Assembly: GCA_003567955.1 (NCBI GenBank)
Contig: PWYF01000231.1
Coordinates: forward strand, 1 to 42,512
Reading direction: 5' to 3'
DNA: 42,512 nucleotides
Origin: Thiotrichales bacterium
GTDB lineage: Bacteria; Pseudomonadota; Gammaproteobacteria; UBA5335; SLRW01
Every line of letters begins with the position of its first letter. Within the stretch, counting starts at the first letter, position 1. Shown here piece by piece: positions 370 through 21,701 of the stretch. The notes under the pieces are model-generated. The model saw only the letters and a program-made list of their open reading frames with translations. It was not told the DNA's origin and searched no databases. Both the position numbers and the translations under genes were made by a program.

Positions 370-635
370 AAGGAAACGCTGATTAATTCGTCACGTCTCA
401 GCGGGTCCTGCGGCGTCCATATGCAAGGCGCCGTGCGCAGTCGAAGGCTGGTTGCCTTTGCAAGCACGGCAACGCCGCAGATGGGCGCCGCAGGACCCGC
501 CCTTCGGGGCTTTGCCAGCAGGCCAGTCTCTGCGTTGCGCCTTTTCACCGTATTCTCGATACGCTTTCAAAGTCGCGCCTTGATTCTGGCCTGCTGGCAA
601 AGCCTGAGGCGCGACGAATTAATCAGCGTTTCCTT
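370..635. repeat. structured nested-palindrome element (MITE-like or structured-RNA-like)
   Basis: Outer 32-bp inverted repeats at 370-401 and 604-635 match at 30/32 positions. There are two inner perfect stems: 401-415 with 486-500 (15 bp) and 509-526 with 586-603 (18 bp). The motif cacgtctcag also occurs at 349-358. Confidence 0.6.
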
Positions 636-1641
636 TAACCTCGTCGCTGTGCAGCCACTGGCGCAGTTGCGCCCACACCTCGGCCTCGCGCGCCGAACAA
701 TCCCGCAATAAATCCGCCAGGGTTTCTATGTTCATGTCGCTGCGCTTGCGACTGACCCGGGCCGCCGCCAGCGCAAACTCACGCCAGCGATCACCCGCGG
801 CCGTCAGAGCCGTGGCGGCATCAGCCAGGGCCTGGCTGTCCAGCTTTTCCGCCGACTCCTGCAGAAAAGAGGCATAGAGGAAGCGAAACCCGGCGCCGCC
901 GGTGCCGATTTCCTCCTGCATGCGCACGATGTGGGCCAGGTACAGAGGCAGACGCTTGCGAGCATCACGCCGGCGGCTGGTGCGAATGAGATTGTCCGCC
1001 AGGTAGCGAATCCCGCGCACACCCAGCACCCGGAATGGCGCGTGTGCCATGATTTTTTCGTTGAGCCGGATCGCGGCCGGGACCTTGCTGGCGTAGTCGA
1101 TTTCCTGTGGCACATGTACCGGATAGTAGAGCAGGCCTTTGGCCGCCAGCGCCCCTTTGGCAAAACGCGCGCGCTGCAAGTCCGCAGCGGGGCAGCGCAC
1201 CGGCGCCTCGAACACCGGATCACTGATCAGATAATCATCGCCCTCGCGGCCATAGACGAGCAGGTTGTGCGCATTGAAGTGAAAGCGCATTTCATCCGGA
1301 AAGTAGGGCAACCAGAAAACAGAGGTCTGCAGGCCCACAACCCGGCCTTCATCGAGCAGCCGGTCCAGCGCCGCCATGCCCCGCTTCTGGTTGCGGAATG
1401 TCTTTGACGCAAACCGCACGCCCAGACGCTTGCTGGCCTTGCGGATAATCCAGCGCGGCGGCATGCGATAAGCGATCAGGGGCATGCCGCCGATCTTGAC
1501 GAAGGGCAGATAGGCGAAGCTCAGGGCGCTGGCCAGGCCAAAGGCCATGGGCTCACTGATTGGCAAGCCATGATGACTGAGCATGGCCGAAACCACACCG
1601 CTTTCACAGTGAGCCGCCTGGCGGTGGCAAAATTCGCTCAT
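619..1641 (-). CDS. BtrH N-terminal domain / DUF4872-like protein (papain-fold, ACP-dependent acyltransferase-like)
   Basis: The N-terminal HRQAAHCESGVVSAML motif resembles the catalytic-Cys region of BtrH_N family proteins. The protein is 340 aa. Its start overlaps the upstream gene's stop by 4 nt. It is the last gene of the minus-strand dar operon. Confidence 0.6.
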   Translation of the reverse strand: MSEFCHRQAAHCESGVVSAMLSHHGLPISEPMAFGLASALSFAYLPFVKIGGMPLIAYRMPPRWIIRKASKRLGVRFASKTFRNQKRGMAALDRLLDEGRVVGLQTSVFWLPYFPDEMRFHFNAHNLLVYGREGDDYLISDPVFEAPVRCPAADLQRARFAKGALAAKGLLYYPVHVPQEIDYASKVPAAIRLNEKIMAHAPFRVLGVRGIRYLADNLIRTSRRRDARKRLPLYLAHIVRMQEEIGTGGAGFRFLYASFLQESAEKLDSQALADAATALTAAGDRWREFALAAARVSRKRSDMNIETLADLLRDCSAREAEVWAQLRQWLHSDEVKGNAD

Positions 1642-2057: not shown

Positions 2058-2058
2058 T

Positions 2059-3213
2059 TCAGACCACCGTCAGGCACATGAAACAGGTGGAGAATCGCCC
2101 GCTCTCGGGGATATAACAAAGCACCCGCTGACCCGGCTCAAGCTTGCCCGAATGAAACAGCTCTTCCAGCATGATATAGATCGACGCCGAGCCGGTGTTG
2201 CCCTTCCACGGCAAATTGGTAAACCAGCGCTCGAAGGGAATCGGCATGCCGGCATTTTGCAGGCCCTCAAGCACTTTCTCGCGGAAATAGCCGGAGGAAT
2301 AATGCGGCACGAACCAGTCGAAATCATCCGCCTCGACCCGGTGTTTGTCACGCAGCATACGCACCGCGCGCTCCACTGAATATTCCACAATATGCTCGTT
2401 GAGCAGTTTCACATCCTGTTTGATCGCCATCACCGACTGCGCGGCCCGCTCGCGCTGGGAATGCAGCAGCCAGCTGCGCAGCCGGCGATCCTCGCCCTTG
2501 GTGGCGCCGGCATACATACAGGTTTCCATCTCGCCGGCGTAGGACACCAGCTCCATCCAGTCCACCCGCAAGCTCACCGGCCCGGGGCCGGGTTGAGGCT
2601 GTAACAGCACAGCACCGGCGCCATCGGAGAGCATCCAGCGCAGAAAATCCTTTTCAAAGGCCAACTCGGGCTGCTTTTCCAGCGCCTGCACCAGGGCCTC
2701 GTTCTCGGCCTCGTAGTTAACCGATCGCAACATCGCCGAGGCCAGCTCCGAGCCGGTGGCCACAGCGTTGTCATGCAGGCCCGAGAGCACCGACATCCAG
2801 GCGTAACGAAACGCCCCCATGCCGGCCAGACAGATCCCGGCATTGCTGACGACCTCACAGGCCGGCAGGCCGAGTTCGCCATGCACCATCAGACCATGGC
2901 CCGGCGCCAGCTGGTCCGCCACAGTGGTCCCGCAAGCCAGGCTCTGGATTTGCGCCAGATCAAATCCCTCACCCACCAGCCCGCGCACGGCCTCGGCGGT
3001 CAGCGTGGCATTGGTATGTGTGTATTCCAGGGTTTCGGGGTCAATCGCATAGTGGCGACTCTGGATGCCATTACTGCGCAACACGGTGCGCCGGGCGCGC
3101 GAGGGGCGTTCGCCCACCTGGCCCAGAATCCGCTCCATGTCGTCATTACCCACCGGCTCATTGGGCAGACAGGCCGCCACGCGGGTGACAAATACGTCTC
3201 TGGCAGAACTCAT
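2059..3213 (-). CDS. darB: FabH-like beta-ketoacyl-ACP synthase III (DarB-type dialkylresorcinol synthase)
   Basis: KAS III features are present: NAGICLAGMGAF (Cys region) and C-terminal WKGNTGSASIYIMLEE. The protein is 384 aa. It overlaps the DarA-like gene by 4 nt. Confidence 0.75.
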   Translation of the reverse strand: MSSARDVFVTRVAACLPNEPVGNDDMERILGQVGERPSRARRTVLRSNGIQSRHYAIDPETLEYTHTNATLTAEAVRGLVGEGFDLAQIQSLACGTTVADQLAPGHGLMVHGELGLPACEVVSNAGICLAGMGAFRYAWMSVLSGLHDNAVATGSELASAMLRSVNYEAENEALVQALEKQPELAFEKDFLRWMLSDGAGAVLLQPQPGPGPVSLRVDWMELVSYAGEMETCMYAGATKGEDRRLRSWLLHSQRERAAQSVMAIKQDVKLLNEHIVEYSVERAVRMLRDKHRVEADDFDWFVPHYSSGYFREKVLEGLQNAGMPIPFERWFTNLPWKGNTGSASIYIMLEELFHSGKLEPGQRVLCYIPESGRFSTCFMCLTVV

Positions 3214-4166
3214 GTGTTGTTATTTCCGGCTTCTCCGGCCTCCCCGGAGGGGGCCGCATAATAGGCCCTTTGCCGGGCAGTACGCCCGCGCATCAGGGGT
3301 GCGATCAGCCGCTTGATGATCGCCGTTACGGGCACCACGGTGATAATCATGGTGACAAGAAACACCACGTAAAGTGCCAGCACCAGCCGCCGCTGCGGGC
3401 TGCCCGGGCGGCCCACACGCCGCAAAAGGGCGCCCCAGAGGCGGAAACTGCGGTGCGCGATACGCTCCGAGGCAATCAGGCGTTCGTTAATTTTAACAGC
3501 CCCCAGCCCCCGCAGCATAGGTGAGTCGTCGTCATCTGCGCGCTCGGGCAGCTGTCGGGCGATAGCCTCACCAAAGCGTGAAGCGGCCCTGATTTCGCCG
3601 GCTTCAATACCCGCTGCCGGCACCAACCCGCCCAGAAAGGGTCCGCGCCGGCCGGTGAGCATCCAGGCCGGGGTGGAAATAAAAGTCGCCGCGCTATGCG
3701 AGGAATCCGTCAACACCACATTGTCCACCAGCCGCGCATCCAGCTCACGCAGGCGCTGCTTGAATGTCTCCTGCGCCATCAGCCACATGTTGCGGCAACC
3801 AATCAGTGTCATCACCCGCCTGCCCCGCACCAGCCGCCGGCCACGCTCACTCTGGAGAAAGGCGGTGATGGGCATGGCCGGCGACAGAAACCAGACCTGC
3901 CAGGCGAGGATCACCAGGTCATAGTCGCCATCCTCGGGCAGGGCGCTTTCATCAATCGGCGCCGGGTCTTCATGCACGGTCTCGGGGAAAGTGTCGAAAA
4001 AGCGCCAGAAAGACCAGGGAAAGGGAAACGGCTCCACAGGGCGCAAGGGCACACGCGTCACCACGATCTGCGACGATTGCTCCAGGGGCGCCAGCACTGA
4101 ATCGAGCAGCGCGTCAAGCTGCCCGGTCTGTGACCAGCCGACTGCCAGCACCTTTTTCGCCGTCAT
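3210..4166 (-). CDS. darA: DarA-like dialkylresorcinol condensing enzyme partner
   Basis: 318 aa with a flavodoxin-like N-terminus (KKVLAVGWSQTGQL) and a C-terminal TM helix (LVLALYVVFLVTMIITVVPV). It sits immediately upstream of and coupled to the FabH-like gene, as in darAB loci. The family call is from memory. Confidence 0.5.
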   Translation of the reverse strand: MTAKKVLAVGWSQTGQLDALLDSVLAPLEQSSQIVVTRVPLRPVEPFPFPWSFWRFFDTFPETVHEDPAPIDESALPEDGDYDLVILAWQVWFLSPAMPITAFLQSERGRRLVRGRRVMTLIGCRNMWLMAQETFKQRLRELDARLVDNVVLTDSSHSAATFISTPAWMLTGRRGPFLGGLVPAAGIEAGEIRAASRFGEAIARQLPERADDDDSPMLRGLGAVKINERLIASERIAHRSFRLWGALLRRVGRPGSPQRRLVLALYVVFLVTMIITVVPVTAIIKRLIAPLMRGRTARQRAYYAAPSGEAGEAGNNNT

Positions 4167-4462
4167 GATTCGCTCTCCTGATCAAGCTTCAGTCGCCCGC
4201 GCACCAGCAACTGCTGATCACGCCGGCAACTGAAACTCACCGTATCACCGCCTGGCTCGCCGAGCTCAATATCAAATTGTTCCCCGGGGTACAGCGGCTG
4301 CATGAACTTGACCTTCTTCAGCCCGGTAATGTTCACAGTCGACAGTTGTGCGCGCGCATGCGAGAGCACTGCGCCCAGAATCACCACCGCCGGCACCACC
4401 GGATGGCCCGGAAAATGCCCCGGTAACGCCGGATGGTCTGCCGCTATTTGCGTTTGCATCAT
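4163..4462 (-). CDS. small hotdog-fold 3-hydroxyacyl-ACP dehydratase (ApeI-type)
   Basis: Motif DHPALPGHFPGHPVVPAVV. I prefer the ATG at 4462 (MMQTQ, preceded by gaggcagg) over the ORF-track start at 4591. It overlaps darA-like by 4 nt. Confidence 0.7.
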   Translation of the reverse strand: MMQTQIAADHPALPGHFPGHPVVPAVVILGAVLSHARAQLSTVNITGLKKVKFMQPLYPGEQFDIELGEPGGDTVSFSCRRDQQLLVRGRLKLDQESES

Positions 4463-4682
4463 ACCTGCCTCTGTCCACCCTGTTGCCCACCGGGGCCGTG
4501 CTGGAACAGGATAGTCAACACTGGCCTGATGGCGCCATGTTCTATAGGATAACGGCACCAGATTGAAAACCCGGCCCATGCCGTCGCGCATCCGCCCCGG
4601 GGCCGGGGCGCAAAACTAATCGATTGAGGCGTTACTGTACAGAGACGGCATGGCCGCATGTGCTGTCGCGGGTTAAGAGACT

Positions 4683-4934
4683 ATGGACAACAATCGCGAA
4701 CAAATCATGAACGAGCTGACCCGGATTCTGGTCGAGATGTTCGAGGTCGACGAGGACGAGGTTGTCCCCGAGGCCCGCCTGTACGAGGATCTGGACATAG
4801 ACAGCATTGATGCCATCGACATGGTGATCCGGCTCAAGGAAATTACCGGCAAGAAGGTCTCGCCCGAGGATTTCAAGTCCGTACGCACGGTCGAGGACGT
4901 GGTCGAGGCCACCATGAAATTGCTCGAGAACTGA
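4683..4934 (+). CDS. acyl carrier protein
   Basis: 83 aa. DLDIDSIDAIDMV contains the DS phosphopantetheine attachment motif. Confidence 0.9.
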   Translation: MDNNREQIMNELTRILVEMFEVDEDEVVPEARLYEDLDIDSIDAIDMVIRLKEITGKKVSPEDFKSVRTVEDVVEATMKLLEN

Positions 4935-5497
4935 TGGCGCGTTTGCTTGGCCCGCTGTTTGTTATTGTTGCCGCGGGCTATCCACTGCTGGTGTATTTTT
5001 CCCTGGATCATCTGCCCCCCGCCGCGATGGCGCTGATCCTGCTCGCGCTTGCTGTCACCCGCCTGGCCCTGTGGGGCCGCCTTCCGGGCGATCGCCTGCT
5101 CCTGGTGACCGGCATCGTGGCCATGGTGGCCGTGGCGGTAATCACGCTGCTCAGCAACAGCAAGGAGGGTCTGCGTTATTACCCGGTGGTGATCAATGCT
5201 GCCATGCTCGTGCTCTTTGCCTGGTCTCTGACCCAGCCCCGCACCATTATCGAGCGCCTGGCGCGCCTGTTCGAACCGGAGCTGCCGCCCGAGGGGGTGG
5301 CGCATACCCGCCAGGCCACCTGGGCCTGGTGCGTATTTTTTACCCTCAATGGCAGCATTGCCCTGTGGACCGCAATCGCCGCAAGCTGGGAAATCTGGAC
5401 ACTTTATAACGGGCTGATTGCCTATATCCTCATGGCCATGCTGTTTGCCGGCGAATATGCCCTGCGCCAGCACCGCAAAAGGAGACTGGCCTCTTGA
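4934..5497 (+). CDS. small integral membrane protein of APE clusters (COG4648-like)
   Basis: 187 aa with several hydrophobic helices. Its ATG overlaps the ACP stop codon by 1 nt. The position matches the membrane protein conserved next to the ACPs in APE loci. Confidence 0.6.
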   Translation: MARLLGPLFVIVAAGYPLLVYFSLDHLPPAAMALILLALAVTRLALWGRLPGDRLLLVTGIVAMVAVAVITLLSNSKEGLRYYPVVINAAMLVLFAWSLTQPRTIIERLARLFEPELPPEGVAHTRQATWAWCVFFTLNGSIALWTAIAASWEIWTLYNGLIAYILMAMLFAGEYALRQHRKRRLAS

Positions 5498-7194
5498 AGC
5501 CGGATTTCACCCGACTGCAAAGCTTGCACCTGGTCCGGCGTGAGGATGCCCAGGTGCTGTTTGTGCATGAAGAGCGCGAAATCACCTGGCCGCAATTGCT
5601 GGCCGATGTTGCCGCCTTGCGCGTCCGCCTGGCTGACTCGCCGGCGCGCGACTGGGCGGTATTTGAGGAACAGGCCTACCCCTTCAGCGTGGCATTGCTG
5701 GCCCTGCTGGGCAGCGGCCGGCGACTCTGGCTCCCCGCCAATGCCACCGCAGAAACCGCCGAACGTCTGAGCCGGCACTGCGGGGGCTGGCTGGGCGCGC
5801 AATGGCCCGGGGGCACCCCCGTACCGATCGCTCAGAAGCATCCGGCCGAAGCGCTTTCACCCCTTAGCGGGGAGGTGGTGGTATTTACATCCGGCTCGAC
5901 CGGTGAGCCCAGGGCTATTACCAAAAAACTGCACCAGCTCGACGCCGAAGTGGCCTCGCTGGAACAACTCTGGGGCGAACAACTTGGAGACGCACAAATT
6001 CTGGGCACGGTCAGCCACCAGCATATCTACGGTCTGCTGTTCCGGGTCTTGTGGCCACTGTGCGCCGGGCGCACCAGCCACAGTGAGATGCTGCCCACAG
6101 TCGAGAGCGTGCTGACCCGGGCCGGGGTTTGCGCGCACGCCGCCTGGGTCAGCAGCCCGGCACATCTGCGCCGCCTTGAAAATACAGCGCCGTGGTCAGG
6201 GGCCCGCTCAAAACTGGCTGCCATTTTCAGTTCGGGCGGCCCGCTGCCAGCGGAATCCGCCACTCAATGTTATGAGTTAAGTGGCCACTGGCCGATTGAG
6301 GTATTTGGCAGCTCTGAAAGCGGCGGCATCGCCTGGCGCACCCAGGCTGACGGCAATCGCCTGTGGACCCCGCTGCCGGGGGTGGAAACCGCAGCCGCCG
6401 ATGACGGCCGGCTGCAATTGCGTTCCCCCCACTTGCCGGATCAGCAATGGCTGCGCATGGATGATGCCATCACTCACGAGCAGGACGGCCGTTTCTCGCT
6501 CGGCCCCCGGCTTGACCGTATCGTCAAGGTTGAAGGCAAGCGGCTGGCGCTGCCGGAACTGGAACAATGCCTGGAGGCCCATGAATGGCTCAGCGAAAGC
6601 CGTGCACTGCTGCTGCGCCGCCGGCGCGAAACCGTGGCCGTGGTGGCGGTCCCCAGCCCCGGCGGACAACAGGCGCTGTCGTCGCTGGGCCGTCATGGCT
6701 TTGCCCGGCAATTGCGCGCATCGCTGCAAGCACACTTCGAGCCCGTCACCTTGCCGCGGCTATGGCGTTTCGTCGATCAGTTGCCGGTCAACAGTCAGGG
6801 CAAGGTGAGCCAGCAAACCCTGGCGGCGCTGTTCGAGCGTCACACGAACGGCACCATGCCCCCGGCGCAGCTCCTGCACAAGGATGCCGAATCGGCTGAA
6901 CTGCGCCTGGAAATCACCCCGGAGCTGGCCTGCTTCGAGGGCCATTTCCGTGATATGCCGATTGTCCCCGGCATGGCCCTCGGCGGCTGGGCCGAGTATC
7001 ATGCCCGCCAGCGCCTGCCGGTACACGGCGATTTCCGTCGCTTGCAGAAACTGAAATTCCGCCGTCTGGTCCGCCCGGGACAGACATTACGCCTGCAGCT
7101 CACGTACAATCAGGCTCGCACAAGCGTTATCTGGCGCTTTGAAAATGAAGCCGACGGCACGATATGTGCCTCGGGTGAACTGGTATACGAATAA
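5494..7194 (+). CDS. AMP-dependent aryl-acid:ACP ligase fused to a C-terminal hotdog dehydratase domain
   Basis: Adenylation motifs are FTSGSTGEPRAITKK, GPRLDRIVKVEGKRLALPELE and NSQGKV. The C-terminal ~110 aa carry CFEGHFRDMPIVPGMA (HFxxxPxxPG hotdog motif). The TTG start at 5494 overlaps the upstream stop by 4 nt and has aggag upstream. Confidence 0.8.
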   Translation: MKPDFTRLQSLHLVRREDAQVLFVHEEREITWPQLLADVAALRVRLADSPARDWAVFEEQAYPFSVALLALLGSGRRLWLPANATAETAERLSRHCGGWLGAQWPGGTPVPIAQKHPAEALSPLSGEVVVFTSGSTGEPRAITKKLHQLDAEVASLEQLWGEQLGDAQILGTVSHQHIYGLLFRVLWPLCAGRTSHSEMLPTVESVLTRAGVCAHAAWVSSPAHLRRLENTAPWSGARSKLAAIFSSGGPLPAESATQCYELSGHWPIEVFGSSESGGIAWRTQADGNRLWTPLPGVETAAADDGRLQLRSPHLPDQQWLRMDDAITHEQDGRFSLGPRLDRIVKVEGKRLALPELEQCLEAHEWLSESRALLLRRRRETVAVVAVPSPGGQQALSSLGRHGFARQLRASLQAHFEPVTLPRLWRFVDQLPVNSQGKVSQQTLAALFERHTNGTMPPAQLLHKDAESAELRLEITPELACFEGHFRDMPIVPGMALGGWAEYHARQRLPVHGDFRRLQKLKFRRLVRPGQTLRLQLTYNQARTSVIWRFENEADGTICASGELVYE

Positions 7195-7268
7195 ACGCCC
7201 CGCCCGCACATCAAAGCGGGCGCGTGGCATGATCCAACCGTGGCTGAAGCCCGTGGAGAAACCACCCC

Positions 7269-8849
7269 TTGACCAGACCGCATAACAACCCTTCTGCTTT
7301 CGTTGCACCTCTGGCGGACGGCCCCGTGCTGTTTGATGGCAGTGCGCTCAGCGCTGCGCAAATTGCAGCCATCGCCCGCGGCGAGCGCGGCAGCGCCCTG
7401 TCCGACAATCCGGAGTTCGTCCGGCGCATTGACCGGGGGGCCGAATTTCTTGATCGCCTGTGGCAGGAAGAAGGCGTCATTTACGGTGTGACCACCGGTT
7501 ATGGCGATTCGTGCAGCGTCAATATCCCGCCGCATCTGGTCGAGGAATTACCCCGCCACCTCTACACGTTCCACGGCTGCGGCATGGGCGAGATATTCTC
7601 ACCGGTACAGACCCGCGCCATTCTCGCCGCCCGTCTCGCCAGCCTGGCCCGGGGTTATTCCGGGGTGCGTTATCTGTTGCTGCAACAATTGCACCGTCTG
7701 CTGGCCGAGGACATCCTGCCTGTCATCCCCCAGGAAGGTTCGGTCGGCGCCAGCGGGGATTTGACCCCGTTGTCCTATGTCGCAGCGGTACTGGCAGGGG
7801 AACGCGAGGTGCTCTACCAGGGCGAGCGCCAGCCCACCGCCGAGGTATTCAGACAGCTTGGCATCGAACCCCTGGTGCTTCGGCCCAAGGAAGCACTGGC
7901 GGTGATGAATGGCACGGCTGTGATGACCGGCCTGGCCTGCCTGGCCCTGGTCCGTGCCCGTTATCTGTGCCTGCTTTCGGCCCGCATCACCAGCCTGGCC
8001 GTCCTCGCCATACAGGGCAATGCCGGCCACTTTGAACCCCGCCTGTTCGAGGTCAAACCGCATCCGGGGCAGGGGCGTATCGCGCGCCTCATCCACGAAG
8101 ACCTTGGTGGCAGCAGCAACGAACGACAGAGCTCACGCCTGCAGGACCGCTACTCCCTGCGTTGTGCTCCACACGTGATCGGTGTAGCCGAGGACAGCCT
8201 GCCCTGGCTGACGGAGATGGTGGAAACCGAACTCAACAGCGCCAACGACAACCCCATCATCGACCCCGAACAGGAACGCGTGCTGCATGGCGGGCACTTT
8301 TACGGCGGCCATGTGTGTTTTGCCATGGATGCACTCAAGAATACCGTGGCCAATATCGCCGACTTGCTCGACCGTCAGCTCGCCCAGTTGGTAGACCCCA
8401 AATTCAACCATGGCCTGCCCGCCAATCTCACCGGGGCCACGGGAGAACGCCAATCCCTGAACCACGGCTTCAAGGCCGTACAGATCGGCACTTCGGCCTG
8501 GGCCGCCGAAGCCCTCAAGCTGACCATGCCGGCCAGCGTGTTCTCACGCTCCACCGAATGCCATAACCAGGACAAGGTGAGCATGGGCACCATTGCCGCC
8601 CGTGACTGTCTGCGGGTGCAGACCCTTACCGAACAGGTGGCTGCGGCCACTCTGATGGCGGCCTGCCAGGGCTTGCGTCTGCGCCAGCGAGAAGGGCTTG
8701 ATACGGCGACACTGACCCCGGGCGTCAAACACACCCTGGCGGAAATCGACGCGCTTTTCCCGCTGCTGGAGGAAGACCGCCCGCTGGAGGCCACCCTGCG
8801 TGAAGTCTGCCAGCAGATTCGCAACCGGGGGTTCGAGCTGGATGAGTGA
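7269..8849 (+). CDS. MIO-dependent aromatic amino acid ammonia-lyase (HAL/TAL/PAL family; tyrosine ammonia-lyase suspected from context)
   Basis: GSVGASGDLTPLSY contains the Ala-Ser-Gly MIO triad. TTGYGDS is near the N-terminus. The protein is 526 aa, with a TTG start and ggaga upstream. Confidence 0.85.
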   Translation: MTRPHNNPSAFVAPLADGPVLFDGSALSAAQIAAIARGERGSALSDNPEFVRRIDRGAEFLDRLWQEEGVIYGVTTGYGDSCSVNIPPHLVEELPRHLYTFHGCGMGEIFSPVQTRAILAARLASLARGYSGVRYLLLQQLHRLLAEDILPVIPQEGSVGASGDLTPLSYVAAVLAGEREVLYQGERQPTAEVFRQLGIEPLVLRPKEALAVMNGTAVMTGLACLALVRARYLCLLSARITSLAVLAIQGNAGHFEPRLFEVKPHPGQGRIARLIHEDLGGSSNERQSSRLQDRYSLRCAPHVIGVAEDSLPWLTEMVETELNSANDNPIIDPEQERVLHGGHFYGGHVCFAMDALKNTVANIADLLDRQLAQLVDPKFNHGLPANLTGATGERQSLNHGFKAVQIGTSAWAAEALKLTMPASVFSRSTECHNQDKVSMGTIAARDCLRVQTLTEQVAAATLMAACQGLRLRQREGLDTATLTPGVKHTLAEIDALFPLLEEDRPLEATLREVCQQIRNRGFELDE

Positions 8850-13977: not shown

Positions 13978-13989
13978 AATACGCCAGAG

Positions 13990-14454: not shown

Positions 14455-15179
14455 TGGAGAGCATACTGATTACAGGATCCAGCCGTGGTATCGGCCGGGC
14501 CATTGCCCTGCGCCTGGCGCGAGACGGGTTCCAGGTCGTGCTGCACTGTCGCAGCCAGCGCCAGCAGGCCGAAGCGGTTGCCGAAGAAATCACAGCCGCC
14601 GGGGGCGCCGCGCCGCGCATTCTCCAGTTTGATGTCGCCGAACGCGACGCTGCCCGCGAGGCCCTTGAGGCAGACACCGGCGAACACGGCGCCTATTACG
14701 GGGTGGTATGCAATGCCGGCGTGACCCGCGACGGTGCCTTCCCGGCGCTCACCGGCGAGGACTGGGACAGCGTGATCCATACCAATCTGGATGGTTTCTA
14801 CAATGTCCTGCAGCCGCTGATCATGCCCATGGTCCGCCGCCGCCAGCCGGGCCGCATTGTCACCATGGCGTCGGCGTCCGGCATCATGGGCAACCGCGGC
14901 CAGGTCAACTATTCCGCCTCCAAGGCTGGTATCATCGGCGCCACCAAGGCGCTGGCGCTGGAACTGGCCAAGCGGCGCATTACAGTCAATTGTGTAGCCC
15001 CGGGCCTGATTGAAACCGACATGACCGAAGAACTGCCGCTGGAACAGATGCTGCCCATGATCCCGGCGCAGCGCGCCGGTACGGCCGATGAAGTCGCCGG
15101 GGCTGTGAGCTTTCTCATGAGTGAAGATGCCGCCTATATTACCCGTCAGGTGATCTCGGTAAACGGGGGCTTGTGCTGA
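14454..15179 (+). CDS. 3-oxoacyl-ACP reductase (SDR, FabG-like)
   Basis: TGSSRGIGRAIA cofactor motif and YSASKAG catalytic motif. The GTG start shares 1 nt with the upstream stop. Confidence 0.9.
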   Translation: MESILITGSSRGIGRAIALRLARDGFQVVLHCRSQRQQAEAVAEEITAAGGAAPRILQFDVAERDAAREALEADTGEHGAYYGVVCNAGVTRDGAFPALTGEDWDSVIHTNLDGFYNVLQPLIMPMVRRRQPGRIVTMASASGIMGNRGQVNYSASKAGIIGATKALALELAKRRITVNCVAPGLIETDMTEELPLEQMLPMIPAQRAGTADEVAGAVSFLMSEDAAYITRQVISVNGGLC

Positions 15180-16408
15180 TGCGGCGCGTGGTAGTCACCG
15201 GCATGGCAGGGGTGTCATCCGTGGGCCAGGACTGGACCACGGTACGGGAGAACCTGCGCGCGGGTCGCAGCGGTATTCGCTACATGGATGAGTGGGACAT
15301 CTACGAGGGCCTGCTGACCCGGCTTGGCGGCCCGGTGGATGCATTTGAACGGCCTGAGCATTACCGTCGCAAGGCCACCCGCAGCATGGGCCGGGTGGCG
15401 CTGATGGCCACCCGCGCCACCGAGCTGGCGCTGGCCGATGCGGGGCTGCTGGAAGAAAAAGAGATCCTTGGCAGCGGCCGGGCCGGCGTGGCCTATGGCT
15501 CTTCCACCGGCAGCACCGACGCGCTGACTGATTTTGCGGGCCTGCTGATCAACCGCTCGACCAGCGGCATTACTGCCACCACGTATATCCGCATGATGTC
15601 GCACACGGCGCCAGTCAACGTGGGCGTGTTCTTCGGCCTCAAGGGCCGCATCTATACCACCTCCAGCGCCTGCACCTCGGGCAGTCAGGGCATCGGCTAT
15701 GCCTATGAAGCGATTCGCAGCGGCGCCCAGGACATCATGATCGGTGGTGGCGGGGAAGAACTCTGCCCCACCGAAGCCGCTGTATTTGACGCCCTGTTTG
15801 CCACCTCCACCCGCAATGACGCAGCCCACACCACACCGCGACCCTATGACCGCGACCGTGACGGGCTGGTGATTGGCGAAGGCGCCGGCAGCCTGGTGCT
15901 GGAAGAACTGGAGCACGCCCGGGCGCGAGGCGCGCATATCCATGCCGAGGTGGTGGGTTTTGGCACCAATTCCGACGGCCGCCACGTCACCCAGCCCGAA
16001 GCCACCACCATGCAGATTGCGCTGGAGCTGGCGCTGGCCGACGCCGAGCTCGATCCGTCAGCGATCGGCTATGTCAGCGGCCATGGCACAGCCACCGATC
16101 GCGGGGATGTCGCCGAGAGCATTGCCACCCGGGAAACCTTCGGGCGGGCCGTACCCATCAGTGCCTTCAAGAGCTATACCGGCCATACCCTGGGCGCCTG
16201 CGGTGCACTGGAAGCCTGGGTGGCTATTCACAGCATGAACGAGGGCTGGTTTCACCCCACGATCAATCTTGAAAATCTTGACCCGAACTGCGCCGAGCTC
16301 GACTACATCACCGGCGAGGGCCGTGAACTCGACTGCGAATACATCATGAGTAACAACTTTGCCTTCGGCGGCATCAATACCTCGCTGATCTTCCGCCGCT
16401 GGCAATAA
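15179..16408 (+). CDS. beta-ketoacyl-ACP synthase (FabB/F-like KS)
   Basis: Active-site TSSACTSGSQ, GHGTATDRGD and YTGHTLGACGALE (Cys-His-His). The ATG at 15179 overlaps the fabG-like stop by 1 nt. Confidence 0.9.
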   Translation: MRRVVVTGMAGVSSVGQDWTTVRENLRAGRSGIRYMDEWDIYEGLLTRLGGPVDAFERPEHYRRKATRSMGRVALMATRATELALADAGLLEEKEILGSGRAGVAYGSSTGSTDALTDFAGLLINRSTSGITATTYIRMMSHTAPVNVGVFFGLKGRIYTTSSACTSGSQGIGYAYEAIRSGAQDIMIGGGGEELCPTEAAVFDALFATSTRNDAAHTTPRPYDRDRDGLVIGEGAGSLVLEELEHARARGAHIHAEVVGFGTNSDGRHVTQPEATTMQIALELALADAELDPSAIGYVSGHGTATDRGDVAESIATRETFGRAVPISAFKSYTGHTLGACGALEAWVAIHSMNEGWFHPTINLENLDPNCAELDYITGEGRELDCEYIMSNNFAFGGINTSLIFRRWQ

Positions 16409-16437
16409 CCCACACCGACCGGAGCGGGCCATCTGGC

Positions 16438-16878
16438 ATGGACATCCTTGATCGCGACGCCATTGCCGCCATGATTCCTCATGCCGGTGAGATGTGCCTG
16501 CTGGAAGCGATCACCGCCCATGACGCCCGCTGTATCACCGCCCGCGCCACCAGCCACCGGGCGCCGGACAACCCGCTGCGGCGTGATGATTGCCTGCCGG
16601 TGGAAGCCGGCATTGAATATGCCGCCCAGGCGATGGCGGTACATGGCGGACTGGCCGCCGGCGAGGGGCCGCCGCGCCGCGGCTTTGTCGCGGTTATCAA
16701 CCGCGTCGAGTGGCAATGTCAGCGGCTGGATGACCTGGATGCCGAACTGCTGATCCATGCCGAAGCACTGCAAAGCATGGCGGACAGCCGCAATTATGCT
16801 TTCAGCCTGAGTTGCAATGACCGCACCCTGCTCGAAGGCGAGGCCATGGTCGTGCTGGAAGCGCTGGAGGCGGACTGA
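16438..16878 (+). CDS. second FabA/FabZ-like hotdog dehydratase (ApeP-type paralogue)
   Basis: MIPHAGEMCLLEAITAHD parallels the motif of the 13990-14454 product. 146 aa. Confidence 0.65.
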   Translation: MDILDRDAIAAMIPHAGEMCLLEAITAHDARCITARATSHRAPDNPLRRDDCLPVEAGIEYAAQAMAVHGGLAAGEGPPRRGFVAVINRVEWQCQRLDDLDAELLIHAEALQSMADSRNYAFSLSCNDRTLLEGEAMVVLEALEAD

Positions 16879-16881
16879 CCC

Positions 16882-17619
16882 ATGCATCCTCTGCGCTTCG
16901 CCATCAGCCACTGGGCGGCCTGGGCCCCGGGCGTGGAGACCCGTGCCGACTGGCAGCAATGGCTGGTCGAAGGTGGTCAGGTGGATGCAATCCCGACCGA
17001 ACCGGACAAGCCCCGCCTGGATTTCATGCCGCCCATGCTGCGCCGACGCGCCAGCCGGGTCAGCCGCGCCGCATTGCGTGTGGCGTGGGAATGCAACGAA
17101 CCGGACCACAACACCCGCATGATCTTTGCCTCACGTCACGGCGAATTGCATCGCAGCAGTGAGCTGCTGGCCGATCTCGCCCGTGAACAACCACTGTCAC
17201 CCAACGCCTTCAGCCTGTCGGTACACAATAGCGCCGCCGGCCTGTATTCCATTGCCACCGGCAATCGCGCAGGGGCCACGGCCCTGGCCGCCGGAATGGA
17301 CAGCCTGCCGAGCGCGATCATTGCCGCTGCCGGTTATCTGCAGCGCGGCGAATCCGCCGTGACCGTGGTTATGGCCGATGAACGTCCGCCTGAATTTTAT
17401 CGCCGCTGGGCCGACTACCCTGTGGGCGTTTTTGCCCTGGGTCTGCGCCTGGTGGCGGCAGATGAGTCTGCCGGCTGGCGTTTGTGTGGCACTGAAGATG
17501 CACCCCGCACATCAACCTCACTGCCCGTCGAGATCGCGCTGCTCTCCATGCTGGCCGGCGATGTCGAACATCTCACTGTAGCGGGCGAAAATCACCGCTG
17601 GCTCTGGGAACGCAATTGA
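16882..17619 (+). CDS. KS-like protein lacking active-site Cys (chain-length-factor type, ApeC-like)
   Basis: 245 aa. The N-terminus FAISHWAAWAPG is typical of the truncated KS N-terminal-like proteins of APE loci. I see no CxS KS active-site motif. Confidence 0.65.
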   Translation: MHPLRFAISHWAAWAPGVETRADWQQWLVEGGQVDAIPTEPDKPRLDFMPPMLRRRASRVSRAALRVAWECNEPDHNTRMIFASRHGELHRSSELLADLAREQPLSPNAFSLSVHNSAAGLYSIATGNRAGATALAAGMDSLPSAIIAAAGYLQRGESAVTVVMADERPPEFYRRWADYPVGVFALGLRLVAADESAGWRLCGTEDAPRTSTSLPVEIALLSMLAGDVEHLTVAGENHRWLWERN

Positions 17620-18392
17620 AGTCACTCAATTACTACTGGCGGCTGCTGGCCACCGGCTATAACTTTGTCAGCTTTGGCATTGGTGCGCTGATTTTCAGTC
17701 TGACCATCATGCCGGTGGTGCGCCTGTGGCCCGGCAGCCGTGAGCGGCGCGAAGCCCGCGCACGCCAGGTCATTCATCTGGTGTTCCGGCTGTTCGCCTG
17801 GCAAATGCGCATGAACGGGGTGCTTTCCCTGAGCGCCGAGGATGTGCAACGATTGCGCCGGGAAGCCGCCGGCCGGGTGGTCATCGCCAACCATCCCTCG
17901 CTGGTTGATGTAGTACTGCTGATATCATTGCTGCCGCGCAGTGGTTGCGTGGTCAAACAGGCCATGTGGCGCAACCCCCTGACCTACGGCATGGTCCAGG
18001 GCGCCGGCTTTATCAGCAATGCCAGTGACTCGGCCACGCTGCTGGAGCGCAGCAAACGCGTACTCGACGCCGGAGATCCGCTGGTGGTGTTCCCTGAAGG
18101 CACGCGCACGGTGCGCGGCGAGCCCGTAAAATTCCAGCGTGGCGCGGCCAATATCGCGGTGCGTAACAATGCGGAAATACTGCCGGTGGTGATTCGTAAC
18201 GCGCCGCCCACACTGAGTAAACAGGAGCGCTGGTACAACATACCGCCAGAGAAAACCCGTTACACCATCACGCCGCAGGATCCAATCCGCATTGAAGATG
18301 TCGTGGATGCCAGCGGCGGCCCGGCGCTGACAACGCGGCGCCTGAACCGTTATCTTGAAAACTATTACAGGAGCATACTTGCCAATGAGTGA
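17616..18392 (+). CDS. lysophospholipid (PlsC-type) acyltransferase
   Basis: HX4D motif NHPSLVD and a FPEGTRT motif. There is an N-terminal TM segment. The TTG start overlaps the upstream stop by 4 nt. Confidence 0.8.
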   Translation: MKSLNYYWRLLATGYNFVSFGIGALIFSLTIMPVVRLWPGSRERREARARQVIHLVFRLFAWQMRMNGVLSLSAEDVQRLRREAAGRVVIANHPSLVDVVLLISLLPRSGCVVKQAMWRNPLTYGMVQGAGFISNASDSATLLERSKRVLDAGDPLVVFPEGTRTVRGEPVKFQRGAANIAVRNNAEILPVVIRNAPPTLSKQERWYNIPPEKTRYTITPQDPIRIEDVVDASGGPALTTRRLNRYLENYYRSILANE

Positions 18393-18645
18393 CCTGGCGC
18401 AGGAAATAAAAGAACTGATTATCGATTGTCTGGATCTTGAGGACATCACGCCCGACGACATCGGCGACGATGACCCGTTGTTTGTGGATGGCCTGGGGCT
18501 GGATTCCATCGATGCCCTGGAACTGGGCATGAACATCCAGAAAAAGTACAACATCAAGCTCGATGCCAATGACGAGGCCAACAAGGAACACTTTGCCTCG
18601 GTCAGTGCCCTGCGCCGGTTCATCGAAAGCCACCAGGCCGGCTGA
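18385..18645 (+). CDS. acyl carrier protein (second copy)
   Basis: GLGLDSIDALELG Ser attachment motif. I prefer the ATG at 18385 (MSDLAQEIK), which overlaps the acyltransferase stop. Confidence 0.85.
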   Translation: MSDLAQEIKELIIDCLDLEDITPDDIGDDDPLFVDGLGLDSIDALELGMNIQKKYNIKLDANDEANKEHFASVSALRRFIESHQAG

Positions 18646-18675
18646 GCCGCCACTGGCGGCGGGGGGAGCATCCCG

Positions 18676-20355
18676 TTGGCATTCAGGCCCTGCCTTGTTG
18701 TGCCCTGCTACAACCACAGCCGCCAGTTGCGCGATACCCTCGCCGCACTGGCGGCAACGGGCCTGCCATGCCTGCTGGTCGATGATGGCAGCGACAGCGA
18801 CAATGCCCGCGCCCTTGAAGCGCTGGCCGATGAACACGACTGGCTGGAGCTGGCCCGGCTGCAACGCAACCGTGGCAAGGGCGTAGCGGTGATACACGGC
18901 ATGCGCCTGGCCGCCAGCCGGGGCTACACTCACGCCCTGCAAATTGATGCCGACGGCCAGCATGATCCGGCCGACATCCCCGCCCTGCTTGAAGCCGCCC
19001 GCGCCGAACCCGAAGCCCTGATCAGCGGCCGCCCGCGCTATGGCGACGACATCCCGCGCGCGCGCCTGTACGGGCGCTACCTCACTCACGCCATGGTCTG
19101 GCTGCAAACCCTGTCGTTCTCGATCAAAGACTCCATGTGCGGTTTTCGTGTCTATCCGCTGGCGCCGACGCTGGCGCTGCTGGAGCGCAGCCGGGTCGGC
19201 CGGCGCATGGATTTCGACACCGAGATCATGGTGCGGCTTTACTGGCAGGGCACCCCGGTGCGCTTTGTAGATACCCGTGTGGTGTATCCGCCGGGCGGGG
19301 TTTCGCACTTCGCCGTACTCGCTGACAACCTGCGCATCACCGCCATGCATACCCGTCTGGTGCTGGGCATGTTGTGGCGGCTGCCGCGGTTGCTCAGAGG
19401 CCGCCACGACGTACAACACTGGTCCCATCAGCCCGAACGCGGCAGCTGGTGGGCCCTGTGGCTGGTCTTCCAGATTTACCGCCTGCTCGGCAGCCGGGTC
19501 ATCAAGCTGCTGCTGTATCCGATGATCGGCTATTTTTTTCTCACCAACCGGGAAGCACGCCAGACCTCGCGTGATTTCCTGCAACGGGTGCATGAGCAGG
19601 GCGGGGCACTGCCCCGGGCGCCGGATAACCGTCTGGTCTACCGCCACCTGTACAGTTTCGGCGACGCTATCGTGGACCGCCTGGCCTGCTGGCAGGGGCG
19701 ACTGCGCCACGAACATATGCGTTTCCACAACCAGCGTCTGTTGCTTGACCAGCGCGACAGTGGTCAGGGCGCGGTGATTCTCACCTCCCATCTGGGCAAC
19801 ATGGAAATGACCCGCGGGCTGATGACCGACATCGAGTTCATCAAGCTCAACGCGCTGGTCTACACCCGCAACGCCGCGCATATCAATGACATTATCCGCC
19901 GCAACAACCCGCGCGCCGGCAGTGACATCATTGATATCGCCCATTTCGGCCCCCAGACCGCACTGGTGCTGGATGAAAAAATCCGCCGCGCCGAGTTCAT
20001 TGCCATCGCCGCGGATCGCACCCCGCCCGGTCAACAATCCCGGCTGATGCCGGCGCGCTTTCTGGGCGAGGAGGCCCTGTTTCCGGCCGGGCCCTTTATT
20101 GTCGCCTCGCTGTTGCATTGCCCGGTGTATTTCATGAGCTGCATCAAGCATGACGACGGCATTTACGATATTGAAGTCAAACCCTTCGCCGAGCGTATTA
20201 ATCTGTCACGTGCCCGGCGGGAAGCGGACCTGGCCGGCTGGATCCAGCAATACGCCGATGAACTGCAGCAGCTGGCCTTGCGCGCCCCCCTGCAATGGTT
20301 CAACTTTTATGACTTCTGGGCCGGAACCGGCCACGAGGAGGCACCGGAGCCATGA
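18676..20355 (+). CDS. family 2 glycosyltransferase fused to LpxL/HtrB-like lipid acyltransferase domain
   Basis: The N-terminal half has VVPCYNH, VDDGSDSDN and QIDADGQHD (GT2 DxD). The C-terminal half has SHLGNMEM (HX4E, as in lipid A late acyltransferases). The start codon (TTG at 18676) is uncertain. Confidence 0.7.
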   Translation: MAFRPCLVVPCYNHSRQLRDTLAALAATGLPCLLVDDGSDSDNARALEALADEHDWLELARLQRNRGKGVAVIHGMRLAASRGYTHALQIDADGQHDPADIPALLEAARAEPEALISGRPRYGDDIPRARLYGRYLTHAMVWLQTLSFSIKDSMCGFRVYPLAPTLALLERSRVGRRMDFDTEIMVRLYWQGTPVRFVDTRVVYPPGGVSHFAVLADNLRITAMHTRLVLGMLWRLPRLLRGRHDVQHWSHQPERGSWWALWLVFQIYRLLGSRVIKLLLYPMIGYFFLTNREARQTSRDFLQRVHEQGGALPRAPDNRLVYRHLYSFGDAIVDRLACWQGRLRHEHMRFHNQRLLLDQRDSGQGAVILTSHLGNMEMTRGLMTDIEFIKLNALVYTRNAAHINDIIRRNNPRAGSDIIDIAHFGPQTALVLDEKIRRAEFIAIAADRTPPGQQSRLMPARFLGEEALFPAGPFIVASLLHCPVYFMSCIKHDDGIYDIEVKPFAERINLSRARREADLAGWIQQYADELQQLALRAPLQWFNFYDFWAGTGHEEAPEP

Positions 20356-21542
20356 GTGCCACAGCCTGTTATCTCAATGCCCTGGGCATGATCAACGCCA
20401 TGGGCGATGACAATGCCGAAATCCTCGCCAGCCTGCTGGCGGGCAAGGCGCCCGGCATGCGCGCGTCGGATGGCTGGATACCCGGCCGCAGCGTGCATAC
20501 CGGCGCCGTGGATGCCGAACTGCCAGCCTGGCCGCAACACCTGGCCCCCCAGACCTCACGCAACAATCGCCTGCTGGCCGCCGCCTGCACCCGGATCCAC
20601 GATGAGATCGAAGCCGCCCGCAACCGCTACGGCGCAGCGCGTATTGGCGTGGTGCTGGGCTCCAGCACCTCCGGCATTGCCGAGGGTGAGGCCGCCATTG
20701 CCGCGCATGAGCACGGCGAAGCGCTTCCCGCCAGCTTTGATTACCGCCAGCAGGAAATGGCCAGCCCCGCGCTGGCGCTGGCCGCACTGATGGAACTGGG
20801 CGGGCCGGCCTGGACCATCTCCACCGCCTGTTCCTCCAGTGCCCGCGCCTTCATGGAGGCCCGTCATCTGCTGGAAATGGAGCTGTGTGATGCCGTGCTG
20901 GTGGGCGGCAGCGATTCCCTGTGTCGGCTCACGCTGAACGGCTTTGCCGCGCTTGATGCCATCGCAACAGGCCCCACCCGGCCCTTTTGCGCCGGTCGTG
21001 ACGGCATCAATATTGGCGAGGGCGCCGCGGTATTTCTGATGACCCGCGAACCGGGCCCCGTGCGCCTGGCCGGGGCCGGCGATGCCAGTGATGCGCATCA
21101 CATCTCCGCGCCACAGCCGGAGGGCGAGGGCGCCGAAGCCGCCATGCGCATGGCGCTGGCTGATGCCGGGCTGGATGCCGCAGAGATTGACTACATCAAC
21201 CTGCACGGCACCGGCACGCCACTGAATGACGCCATGGAAAGCGCGGCAGTCAGCCGCGTCTTCGGCACCGGCACGCCCTGCAGCTCCACCAAGACGCTCA
21301 CCGGTCACACACTGGGCCCGGCCGGCGCCATCGAGGCCGGCCTGTGCTGGCTGCTGCTGTCGGCACAAAACCGTGATCACATCCTGCCGGCCCATATTTT
21401 CAATGGCGAACGCGATCCGGAACTCGCGCCCATCGGCTTGCTGGAGCATCCCGCAACCCTGCCCACGGACCGCACGCGCTACTGTCTGAGTAACTCCTTT
21501 GCCTTTGGTGGTAACAACTGTACCTTGATTCTGGCTGGCTGA
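20352..21542 (+). CDS. beta-ketoacyl-ACP synthase (second KS)
   Basis: TISTACSSSARA (Cys), LHGTGTPLND and LTGHTLGPAGAIEA. ATGA overlap with the upstream gene. Confidence 0.9.
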   Translation: MSATACYLNALGMINAMGDDNAEILASLLAGKAPGMRASDGWIPGRSVHTGAVDAELPAWPQHLAPQTSRNNRLLAAACTRIHDEIEAARNRYGAARIGVVLGSSTSGIAEGEAAIAAHEHGEALPASFDYRQQEMASPALALAALMELGGPAWTISTACSSSARAFMEARHLLEMELCDAVLVGGSDSLCRLTLNGFAALDAIATGPTRPFCAGRDGINIGEGAAVFLMTREPGPVRLAGAGDASDAHHISAPQPEGEGAEAAMRMALADAGLDAAEIDYINLHGTGTPLNDAMESAAVSRVFGTGTPCSSTKTLTGHTLGPAGAIEAGLCWLLLSAQNRDHILPAHIFNGERDPELAPIGLLEHPATLPTDRTRYCLSNSFAFGGNNCTLILAG

Positions 21543-21624: not shown

Positions 21625-21701
21625 AACAGCATTCCCTTGGTGTGAACGGGGTGGCATGCGAATGGTCTGTATCTGTGCCACATCCGTTTTAGCGGTGGAA
21701 A

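Follow-up and report, generated by a model that had tools for sequence, protein, structure and literature searches.

The described systems closest to the locus analyzed here, a combined aryl-polyene (APE) and dialkylresorcinol (DAR) gene cluster in 42,512 nucleotides of DNA labelled as from a Thiotrichales bacterium (contig PWYF01000231.1, assembly GCA_003567955.1; this whole stretch is called the window below), are the ape clusters of Escherichia coli CFT073, Xenorhabdus doucetiae and Acinetobacter baumannii, the flexirubin clusters of Bacteroidota, and arcuflavin, a proteobacterial polyene-DAR hybrid known from Azoarcus sp. BH72 and from arcuflavin-type clusters of Betaproteobacteria. The ape clusters encode two ketosynthases (KSs), a chain-length factor (CLF), two acyl carrier proteins (ACPs), a ketoreductase (KR), ApeI/ApeP dehydratases, the ApeD/ApeJ enzymes of lipid attachment and the ApeG/ApeL/ApeM/ApeN export set, all of which are found again in the window. 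Flexirubin clusters (Chitinophaga pinensis flx/dar, Flavobacterium johnsoniae) combine an ammonia-lyase start and a type II polyene polyketide synthase (PKS) with DarA, DarB, DarG and DarH, a further KS and ACP, LolA/MMPL export and a gene for a FAD-dependent enzyme; these traits are shared as well, the further KS and ACP being visible only in relatives of the window. The Azoarcus dar cluster comprises DarA, DarB, a conserved hypothetical protein, a BtrH-like protein, ABC transporter genes, an ACP and a KS. The DarH/DarG pair occurs both in the C. pinensis flexirubin and in the Azoarcus arcuflavin cluster (there DarE/DarD), and both of these make polyene-DAR esters.

The combination of ape and dar genes has itself been catalogued. 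A survey of 2014 lists clusters termed “flexirubin-type, fused”, in which a gene with a phenylalanine/histidine ammonia-lyase (PAL/HAL) domain is accompanied by dar genes within or beside the polyene cluster; the members given in its Table S7 are Pseudomonas fulva 12-X, P. mendocina NK-01, Actinobacillus suis, Arcobacter and Sulfurospirillum (Schoner et al., 2014). In 2023, hybrid APE-DAR clusters of the types V1-V3 were reported from marine Pseudomonas, without chemical characterisation. An earlier note on the window, made from its letters without database searches, knew of no characterised pigment of this kind in the presumed host group; in view of these listings for Gammaproteobacteria, the novelty of the locus was overstated there. 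Nor does the precedent that it drew from Betaproteobacteria, that of APE-DAR hybrids with a tyrosine ammonia-lyase (TAL), hold, since the characterised hybrid, arcuflavin, starts from an XanB2 chorismatase. On gene content, the window belongs to the “flexirubin-type, fused” or hybrid APE-DAR class, with a product that is predicted.

It is virtually certain that the locus is an APE plus DAR gene cluster. For the explanation proposed here as a whole, namely that of a flexirubin-type cluster in which a type II PKS and export set of the ape kind is joined to a DarA/DarB/DarG/DarH module, with the cluster regarded as intact, we estimate a probability of about 0.78. The core of the earlier reading, a type II PKS aryl-polyene cluster with a DarAB module, an ammonia-lyase and a halogenase that together follow a flexirubin-like logic, is borne out. 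Indeed, the 23 genes then listed are present as long open reading frames (ORFs) at the positions given and belong to the families assigned to them, with E-values (down to 1e-215) that rule out chance. The hidden Markov model (HMM) check that had been proposed was run, and it places the KS, ACP and KR proteins in curated models (PRK09116, PRK09185, PRK05350, PRK09184 and FabG2) and three of the minus-strand genes in DarB, DarG and DarH models.

Differences from each described system are equally clear. Unlike the E. coli ape cluster, the locus has no ApeA or ApeB and adds the lyase, the halogenase, a second pair of hotdog proteins and the Dar module. Unlike the flexirubin clusters of Bacteroidota, it stays below the flexirubin equivalog cut-offs for FlxA (328 bits against 700), FlxB (282 against 340), DarG (118 against 170) and LolA2_flexi (30 against 125), its loading enzyme is ApeH-like rather than a FlxY 4-coumarate-CoA ligase, and for the PKS and for export it relies on genes of the ape type known from Proteobacteria; the DarH equivalog model, in turn, is passed, as a trait shared with flexirubin clusters. 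Arcuflavin is built on 3- or 4-hydroxybenzoate supplied by an XanB2-type chorismatase, in place of which the window has the lyase, and its polyene genes are xanthomonadin-like and unlinked to dar, whereas polyene and dar genes are fused in the window. Finally, in contrast to the gammaproteobacterial clusters already catalogued, the window comes from a different, uncultured haloalkaliphilic lineage.

Organization of the locus

The features are given below with strand, and with bit scores for the models named; percentages are amino acid identities to the E. coli ape proteins (BLASTP).

3-341, +, 3′ part of a conserved gene that converges on darH (C-terminal ~112 of ~295 aa)
619-1641, -, darH, BtrH-related acyltransferase (NF053550 DarH equivalog, 485 bits, cut-off 300; BtrH_N and DUF4872)
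1638-2057, -, darG, small DAR-module protein (NF053536 DarG_fam, 157 bits, cut-off 70)
2059-3213, -, darB, FabH-like KS for cyclohexanedione/resorcinol ring formation (NF005293 StlD/DarB, 586 bits, cut-off 450)
3210-4166, -, darA, dialkylresorcinol condensing enzyme/aromatase, 318 aa (named after homologues; 4-nt overlap with darB)
4163-4462, -, ApeI-like hotdog protein of only 99 aa, encoded at the start of the dar operon (FabA, 25 bits; weak ApeI-like match)
4463-4682, no strand, divergent intergenic spacer between the dar and ape operons (ORF map)
4683-4934, +, ACP, ApeF orthologue (PP-binding; PRK05350, 120 bits; 54%; DSI motif)
4934-5497, +, membrane protein, ApeG orthologue (46%; weak IspA-like match)
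5494-7194, +, ApeH-like adenylating/ACP-loading enzyme fused to an ApeI-like dehydratase domain (AMP-binding and ApeI-like)
7269-8849, +, aromatic amino acid ammonia-lyase of the 4-methylideneimidazole-5-one (MIO) type, predicted TAL (Lyase_aromatic, 544 bits; ASG at 161-163)
8842-9261 (longest ORF from 8800), +, 4HBT thioesterase, ApeK orthologue (4HBT_2; 56%)
9258-9866 (longest ORF from 9210), +, LolA-like carrier, ApeL orthologue (LolA_3; 29%)
9844-12177 (longest ORF from 9751), +, MMPL/RND exporter, ApeM orthologue (MMPL; 31% over 784 aa)
12161-13411 (longest ORF from 12068), +, FADH2-dependent halogenase (Trp_halogenase, 72 bits; GAGPSG; WYWLIP)
13393-13977, +, DUF3261 lipoprotein, ApeN orthologue (DUF3261, 98 bits; 24%)
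13990-14454, +, ApeP dehydratase (ApeP-like, 56.5 bits; 30%)
14454-15179, +, KR, ApeQ/FabG2 (TIGR01831, 394 bits, cut-off 339; 62%)
15179-16408, +, FabB-like KS, ApeR orthologue (PRK09116, 714 bits; 61%)
16438-16878, +, second ApeP-like hotdog dehydratase, 146 aa (PF22817 in homologues; BLASTP match to the window ApeP)
16882-17619, +, CLF-like protein, ApeC orthologue (Ketoacyl-synt_2, 205 bits; 32%, full-length)
17616-18392, +, lysophospholipid-type acyltransferase, ApeD orthologue (Acyltransferase, 64.5 bits; HPSLVD; 40%)
18385-18645 (longest ORF from 18355), +, ACP, ApeE orthologue (PRK09184, 90 bits; 54%; DSI motif)
18676-20355, +, family 2 glycosyltransferase fused to an LpxL-like acyltransferase, ApeJ orthologue (Glycos_transf_2 and Lip_A_acyltrans; 45% over 552 aa)
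20352-21542, +, KS, ApeO orthologue, CLF partner, last gene of the cluster (PRK09185, 512 bits; 48%)

As had been described, the genes form two tightly packed divergent operons with 4-nt overlaps that part at the spacer, 18 of them lying on the plus strand (4683-21542). For the thioesterase, LolA, MMPL, halogenase and second ACP genes, the starts of the longest ORFs are probably too far upstream, judging by gene lengths in relatives; the ApeK orthologue, for instance, has 139 aa in the closest metagenome-assembled genome (MAG). A consensus scan of the spacer gave no match to a sigma-70-type promoter, and such scans for promoters and terminators returned no more matches than in shuffled sequence.

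Of the limits formerly proposed for the locus, 619 and 21542, the right one stands and the left one does not. The cluster ends at 21542, since the next gene (21702-23195, plus strand) encodes the SelO/YdiU protein adenylyltransferase (425 bits in Pfam; YdiU family, 583 bits); a continuation to the right was looked for, and SelO, PurU and TPMT genes were met instead. On the left, going by its relatives, the DAR module runs past base 1. The gene ending at 341 is the tail of one that, in the closest MAG (locus L001, 13529-16334), encodes a 295-aa protein (61% identity over 112 aa to window positions 3-338, tblastn). Behind it, that MAG has genes for a KS of 387 aa and an ACP of 89 aa and then one more gene, truncated where the locus ends and read from its sequence alone as a putative ABC-2-type permease. 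Extra KS, ACP and ABC transporter genes are also part of the published C. pinensis and Azoarcus dar clusters, and an opposite-strand KS lies ~0.9-3 kb past darH in the loci mapped. The cluster is therefore taken to be cut by the edge of the window, with its true left border beyond it. The 295-aa protein matches no Pfam or NCBIfam family; when its relatedness to KS and CLF proteins was examined, the sole match was the adjoining KS (E = 0.0055, in a tiny database), and it might be a degenerate KS partner. Between this gene and darH the window has a gap of 277 nt (342-618) containing no ORF with a family match; in the closest MAG, the two genes overlap by ~23 nt.

The aryl-polyene operon

The E. 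coli ape cluster used for comparison (L084) was fetched by a DNA search with the KR-KS genes, which located it in 825 of the 5426 complete genomes available for this species. From ApeC through ApeR, each E. coli protein has an orthologue in the window that covers its full or nearly its full length, with 24-62% identity, and the aryl-polyene gene set recognized in the earlier note is in this way confirmed. Furthermore, all the core genes named in the APEL preprint (apeO, apeR, apeE, apeF, apeC, apeI, apeP, apeQ and apeM) are present, ApeI as a fused domain. ApeA and the methyltransferase ApeB have no counterpart in the window at E <= 0.01. As already observed, Pfam and NCBIfam scans detect neither a methyltransferase nor a chorismatase gene in the locus, and none of its ORFs has the YjgF-like domain that serves as the marker of an XanB2-type chorismatase (Schoner et al., 2014).

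It was also correctly stated that the gene order departs from that of E. coli. The order in the window is F, G, H-I, lyase, K, L, M, halogenase, N, P, Q, R, the 146-aa ORF, C, D, E, J, O. The blocks F-G-H-I, K-L-M-N, P-Q-R and C-D-E are collinear with E. coli; they have been reshuffled, with J and O as extra elements, and of the loci mapped only those of two soda-lake MAGs (L001 and L006) have their blocks arranged in the same way. The canonical order and the presence of ApeB are typical of the E. coli subtype and do not define the family.

At the level of individual proteins, alignment with E. coli ApeR and ApeO shows that neither KS has lost its active-site Cys (in TSSACTSG and ISTACSSS) or the His residues. 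The CLF-like ApeC orthologue had been called Cys-less: the KS active site is indeed absent, yet the protein has two Cys residues. The ApeN orthologue carries a lipobox-like LAAAC at its N-terminus. The fused protein at 5494-7194 aligns with E. coli ApeH over 432 aa (33% identity), while its C-terminal 101 aa are 33% identical to ApeI. For A. baumannii, the terms “ApeH-Nt” and “ApeH-ApeP (DH)” have been used (PMC8358021), and because of them an ApeH with a dehydratase part is suggested there too, so that the fusion does not seem unique to this locus.

The dialkylresorcinol module and a second hotdog pair

The minus-strand operon is, by its protein families and homologues, a DarA-DarB-DarG-DarH module headed by a small hotdog gene. 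DarA gave no HMM match, the libraries searched holding no DarA model. Its identity comes from 1927 homologues, the named ones of which, at ~60% identity, are called “dialkylresorcinol condensing enzyme”; in 81 sequences, 63 positions are at least 97% conserved. DarB, which passes the StlD/DarB model, stays below the narrower resorcinol_DarB exception model (484 against 550 bits). In DarH, comparison of 68 homologues showed H11-C12-E13-x-G15, H121, N123, H125 and D141 to be conserved at 97% or more, and this invariant HCExG with the conserved His, Asn and Asp would fit a papain-like acyl-enzyme mechanism of the kind used by BtrH. BtrH, the namesake of the DarH fold, is an ACP-dependent acyltransferase that moves its acyl group from ACP to an amine. 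A look-up of the exact DarH sequence of the window retrieved no record.

The 146-aa ORF (16438-16878) had been taken for a second dehydratase. It has no direct HMM match in Pfam or NCBIfam, and an AlphaFold2 model made without an alignment (mean predicted local distance difference test score, pLDDT, 45) was set aside. Nevertheless, three approaches agree on an ApeP-like protein: it matches the window ApeP by BLASTP (E = 3e-5), 12 of 30 homologues match PF22817 ApeP-like, and a profile of its family finds chain 6qsr_B in the PDB at 1.5e-10, a chain deposited as a FabA/FabZ-type dehydratase in an entry that we take to be the Xenorhabdus ApeI:ApeP dehydratase. P14, H15 and E60 are invariant in the family alignment. 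The 99-aa protein at the head of the dar operon, in turn, is 28% identical to E. coli ApeI.

The genes for these two small proteins occur together in 34 loci, singly in 7, and are both absent from 29. In 29 of the 34 co-occurring cases they lie next to each other in divergent orientation, separated by 36-366 bp; the usual place of the pair is where the dar operon begins. In the window they are ~12 kb apart; here and in the closest MAG the pair has been split by rearrangement. Because the genes co-occur, and by analogy with ApeI:ApeP, the 99-aa and 146-aa proteins are suggested to form a second heterodimeric dehydratase of the hybrid clusters. That such a dedicated enzyme builds an unsaturated acyl chain of its own, whether as a substituent of the DAR or as a conjugated fatty acyl group, is a speculative proposal that we consider improbable at present.

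The ammonia-lyase and the halogenase

In the lyase, a His aligns with His93 of SgTAM, and the motif NQD stands in place of the QED of HAL. According to the literature on RsTAL, SgTAM and HAL, enzymes specific for Tyr or for His carry a His at the first position, where PAL carries Phe, and the Glu of QED is specific to HAL. No hut genes were found near the lyase in the Pfam and NCBIfam scans of the window. Since these residues are combined with the lack of hut genes nearby, tyrosine is the most likely substrate.

The description of the gene at 12161-13411 as a WxWxIP halogenase-like flavoenzyme proved accurate. Both GAGPSG and WYWLIP are present, and the Lys of its FQFKNG aligns with that of FPIKRG in CndH. 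WxWxIP is specific to halogenases, and the aligned CndH lysine is catalytic. Its best match in the PDB is 3nix (360 bits), presumably a structural-genomics protein of the flexirubin producer Cytophaga hutchinsonii, followed by matches that include CndH, Bmp2, PltA, ChlB4 and CmlS.

Proposed pathway and alternative explanations

Building on the gene identities, the Ape and Dar orthology, the catalytic motifs and the recurrent linkage of the modules, we infer the following chemistry, in which the roles of the Ape proteins are those given in PMC8358021 and the APEL preprint. The MIO lyase would deaminate L-tyrosine to 4-coumarate, and the ApeH-like domain would adenylate this aryl acid and load it onto the ApeE-type ACP. 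At some stage, the phenol ring would be chlorinated or brominated by the flavin halogenase. ApeO:ApeC, ApeR, ApeQ and the ApeI:ApeP-type dehydratase would add malonyl units, giving a conjugated polyene. In parallel, DarB would join two fatty-acid-derived thioesters into a cyclohexanedione, which DarA would aromatise to a 2,5-dialkylresorcinol; the KS and ACP beyond the left edge of the window may help to provide the substrates, perhaps along with the second hotdog pair. DarH, as a BtrH-like Cys-dependent enzyme, would then shift the polyene acyl group from the ACP to a hydroxyl of the resorcinol. Lastly, ApeD, ApeJ and ApeK, together with ApeG, ApeL, ApeM and ApeN, would take part in lipid attachment and transfer to the outer membrane, where pigments of such type protect against oxidative and photo-oxidative stress.

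Among the parts of this proposal, the tyrosine origin of the starter is rather likely, the polyene-DAR ester is a probable product, and its halogenation is mildly favored. Several points weigh against the proposal. Neither for the organism of the window nor for any gammaproteobacterial carrier in the analysis is chemistry on record, and a literature search found no biochemical demonstration that DarH forms the ester. Because the edge of the window cuts the DAR module, the window itself has no dedicated DAR ACP (DarC) or extra KS; both are visible only in relatives, among them the closest MAG. ApeD and ApeJ orthologues are also present, so that an acceptor other than DAR is possible, and in Xenorhabdus these enzymes attach the polyene to a GalNAc-phosphoglycerol lipid (APEL preprint). 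As to the starter, the lyase falls below all NCBIfam cut-offs for HAL, TAL, FlxA and aminomutase, its substrate assignment resting on two residues and on context, and the loading enzyme is an ApeH orthologue with a weak match to the 4-coumarate ligase model (89 bits against a cut-off of 335), ApeH being known to load 4-hydroxybenzoate (PMC8358021; APEL preprint).

Accounts that draw on these points differ in what they change. The main rival is that the locus makes two products and not one ester, namely an APE glycolipid of the APEL type from the plus-strand operon, in which ApeJ would join the polyene to a sugar-phosphoglycerol lipid, and free dialkylresorcinols from the minus-strand operon acting as antioxidants or signals, with DarH in another role such as that of a hydrolase or editing enzyme. 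The intactness of ApeD and ApeJ (40% and 45% identical to E. coli), the separation of the ape and dar sets into divergent operons and the missing biochemical proof for DarH speak for it. Yet the hotdog-darABGH unit is joined to ape genes in many unrelated lineages, the DAR produced from the Azoarcus dar genes was found only in the pigment and not detected free, and flexirubin clusters make the ester although they too carry an acyltransferase and LolA/MMPL genes; the ACP-dependent acyl transfer known of BtrH also suits an esterifying DarH. We therefore hold this account to be quite unlikely, its two products as well as its altered DarH. A different starter is slightly easier to envisage, if still unlikely: the lyase would act on His or Phe, or the ApeH-like enzyme would load 4-hydroxybenzoate drawn from primary metabolism, as happens in E. 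coli, with the lyase in a side branch. The scores below every curated TAL cut-off favor it, as does the fact that the best NCBIfam score is that of a HAL subfamily model (408 against 524). Against it stand the His at the selectivity position where PAL has Phe, the Gln where the QED of HAL has Glu and the lack of nearby hut genes. Moreover, the lyase gene adjoins that of the ApeK thioesterase in the four lineages where the fetched flank covers both, a PAL/HAL-domain gene was the marker of flexirubin-type polyene clusters in the 2014 survey (Schoner et al., 2014), and the C. pinensis lyase has been shown to be a TAL.

The halogen, in turn, would be absent from the product if the flavoenzyme were a monooxygenase or reductase acting on the polyene or the resorcinol. 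The protein also matches geranylgeranyl reductase and monooxygenase models, with lower scores, it is far from reaching the CmlS equivalog (143 against a cut-off of 900), and 3nix, its nearest solved structure, is deposited only as “flavoprotein/dehydrogenase”. On the other side, WYWLIP and the Lys aligned with CndH are in place, the eight PDB matches after 3nix are all halogenases, mostly bona fide flavin-dependent ones, and halogenated relatives of the predicted product are known, namely chlorinated flexirubins and brominated xanthomonadins. This last possibility, with odds that we put at perhaps one in four, is the least unlikely of those considered, and a halogenated, tyrosine-derived polyene ester of a DAR continues to be the preferred product.

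Distribution and host

A scan of 185,579 species genomes with DarA gave 357 relatives, of which 80 loci were kept with flanks of 10 kb. All 80 contain darA and darB, and nearly all the loci that reach far enough contain darG and darH. Their sources are Zhongshania, Halioglobus, Halioxenophilus, Marinobacter, several genera of the Pseudomonas group and Thiopseudomonas, as well as Steroidobacteraceae, Caulobacter, Brevundimonas, Hirschia and others. One of the loci (L081) is from P. chaetocerotis, a species that also figures in the 2023 report on marine Pseudomonas. Many of the kept loci have ape genes within the 10-kb flanks, mostly diverging from the hotdog-darA end, and the layout that recurs has the unit hotdog-darA-darB-darG-darH pointing away from the ape genes and toward a convergent KS on its far side. 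The lyase is found in Halioxenophilus sp. WMMB6 and Brevundimonas sp. FT23042, and also in the soda-lake MAGs and in a single MAG labelled Verrucomicrobiaceae; in the four of these lineages whose fetched flank covers both genes, it lies directly beside apeK. Halogenase orthologues with 60-63% identity occur in Halioglobus and Thiopseudomonas loci. The locus in the Verrucomicrobiaceae-labelled MAG (L048, CAZEVP010000003.1) is a full APE-DAR cluster of the proteobacterial type, lyase included, 46-75% identical to the window; it could reflect horizontal transfer or a binning error. No chemically described polyene-DAR ester from a gammaproteobacterium was found in a literature search, nor were TAL-initiated aryl polyenes outside flexirubin.

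The nearest sequence to the window is a 7.7-kb contig of JGI metagenome 3300000366 (SS_3KL_010_SOIL), with 98-100% protein identity. Next comes the MAG “Gammaproteobacteria bacterium CSSed165cm_587” (GCA_007130745.1), with 67-89% amino acid identity over the shared cluster genes and 85-89% for the Dar proteins, and two further near relatives are MAGs labelled “Pseudomonadales”. The best named relatives of HtpG, at 70-72% identity, are Salinispirillum, Natronospirillum, Alcanivoracaceae, Isoalcanivorax and Marinobacter. Taken together, these similarities point to an uncultured host lineage of the Oceanospirillales type (Pseudomonadales in GTDB) from soda-lake or saline habitats. The earlier guess of a Chromatiales/Ectothiorhodospiraceae-type halophile finds no support, since HtpG and the nearest cluster relatives lie elsewhere. 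It had leaned on two betaine genes, which are real and do not give the family of the host: at 30319-32193 on the minus strand, a glycine/sarcosine N-methyltransferase (510 bits, cut-off 350) is adjacent to a sarcosine/dimethylglycine N-methyltransferase (465 bits, below the cut-off of 550). This pair corresponds to the de novo route to glycine betaine and is consistent with a halophilic host.

Neighbouring genes

An ORF of 573 aa at 21618-23339 on the minus strand was rejected as a gene; it has no family match, shows a composition biased toward G, A, R and Q, and lies antisense to SelO. The TPMT family gene at 24593-25249 (minus strand, 225 bits) has no evident link to the pigment cluster. It was considered as the missing methyltransferase and discarded, since it lies on the opposite strand at a distance of 3 kb, with housekeeping genes in between, and is unrelated to ApeB. 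A haloalkane dehalogenase family gene (33132-34079, plus strand; 484 bits, cut-off 265) likewise has no evident link to the cluster. The 514-aa protein at 28384-29928 (plus strand) shows C-terminal TPR repeats only and no NCBIfam family, and its gene adjoins that of an AraC-type regulator (27372-28268). Neither tRNA genes nor Rfam families, both of which were scanned for, were found in the window.

Significance

The locus opens no new kind of biology. Flexirubin-type pigments still serve as a chemotaxonomic marker for Bacteroidota. Together with its relatives, the locus shows that marine and saline Proteobacteria commonly have a hotdog-DarABGH unit linked to ape genes. If the second hotdog pair indeed makes a distinct acyl chain, and ApeD and ApeJ work beside DarH, the product in this lineage could surpass both flexirubin and the Xenorhabdus APE lipids in complexity, as a polyene lipid that is halogenated and derived from tyrosine. 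To the known hybrid clusters the window adds an intact example with both lyase and halogenase from an uncultured haloalkaliphile, of use for genome annotation and for the choice of strains for structural work.

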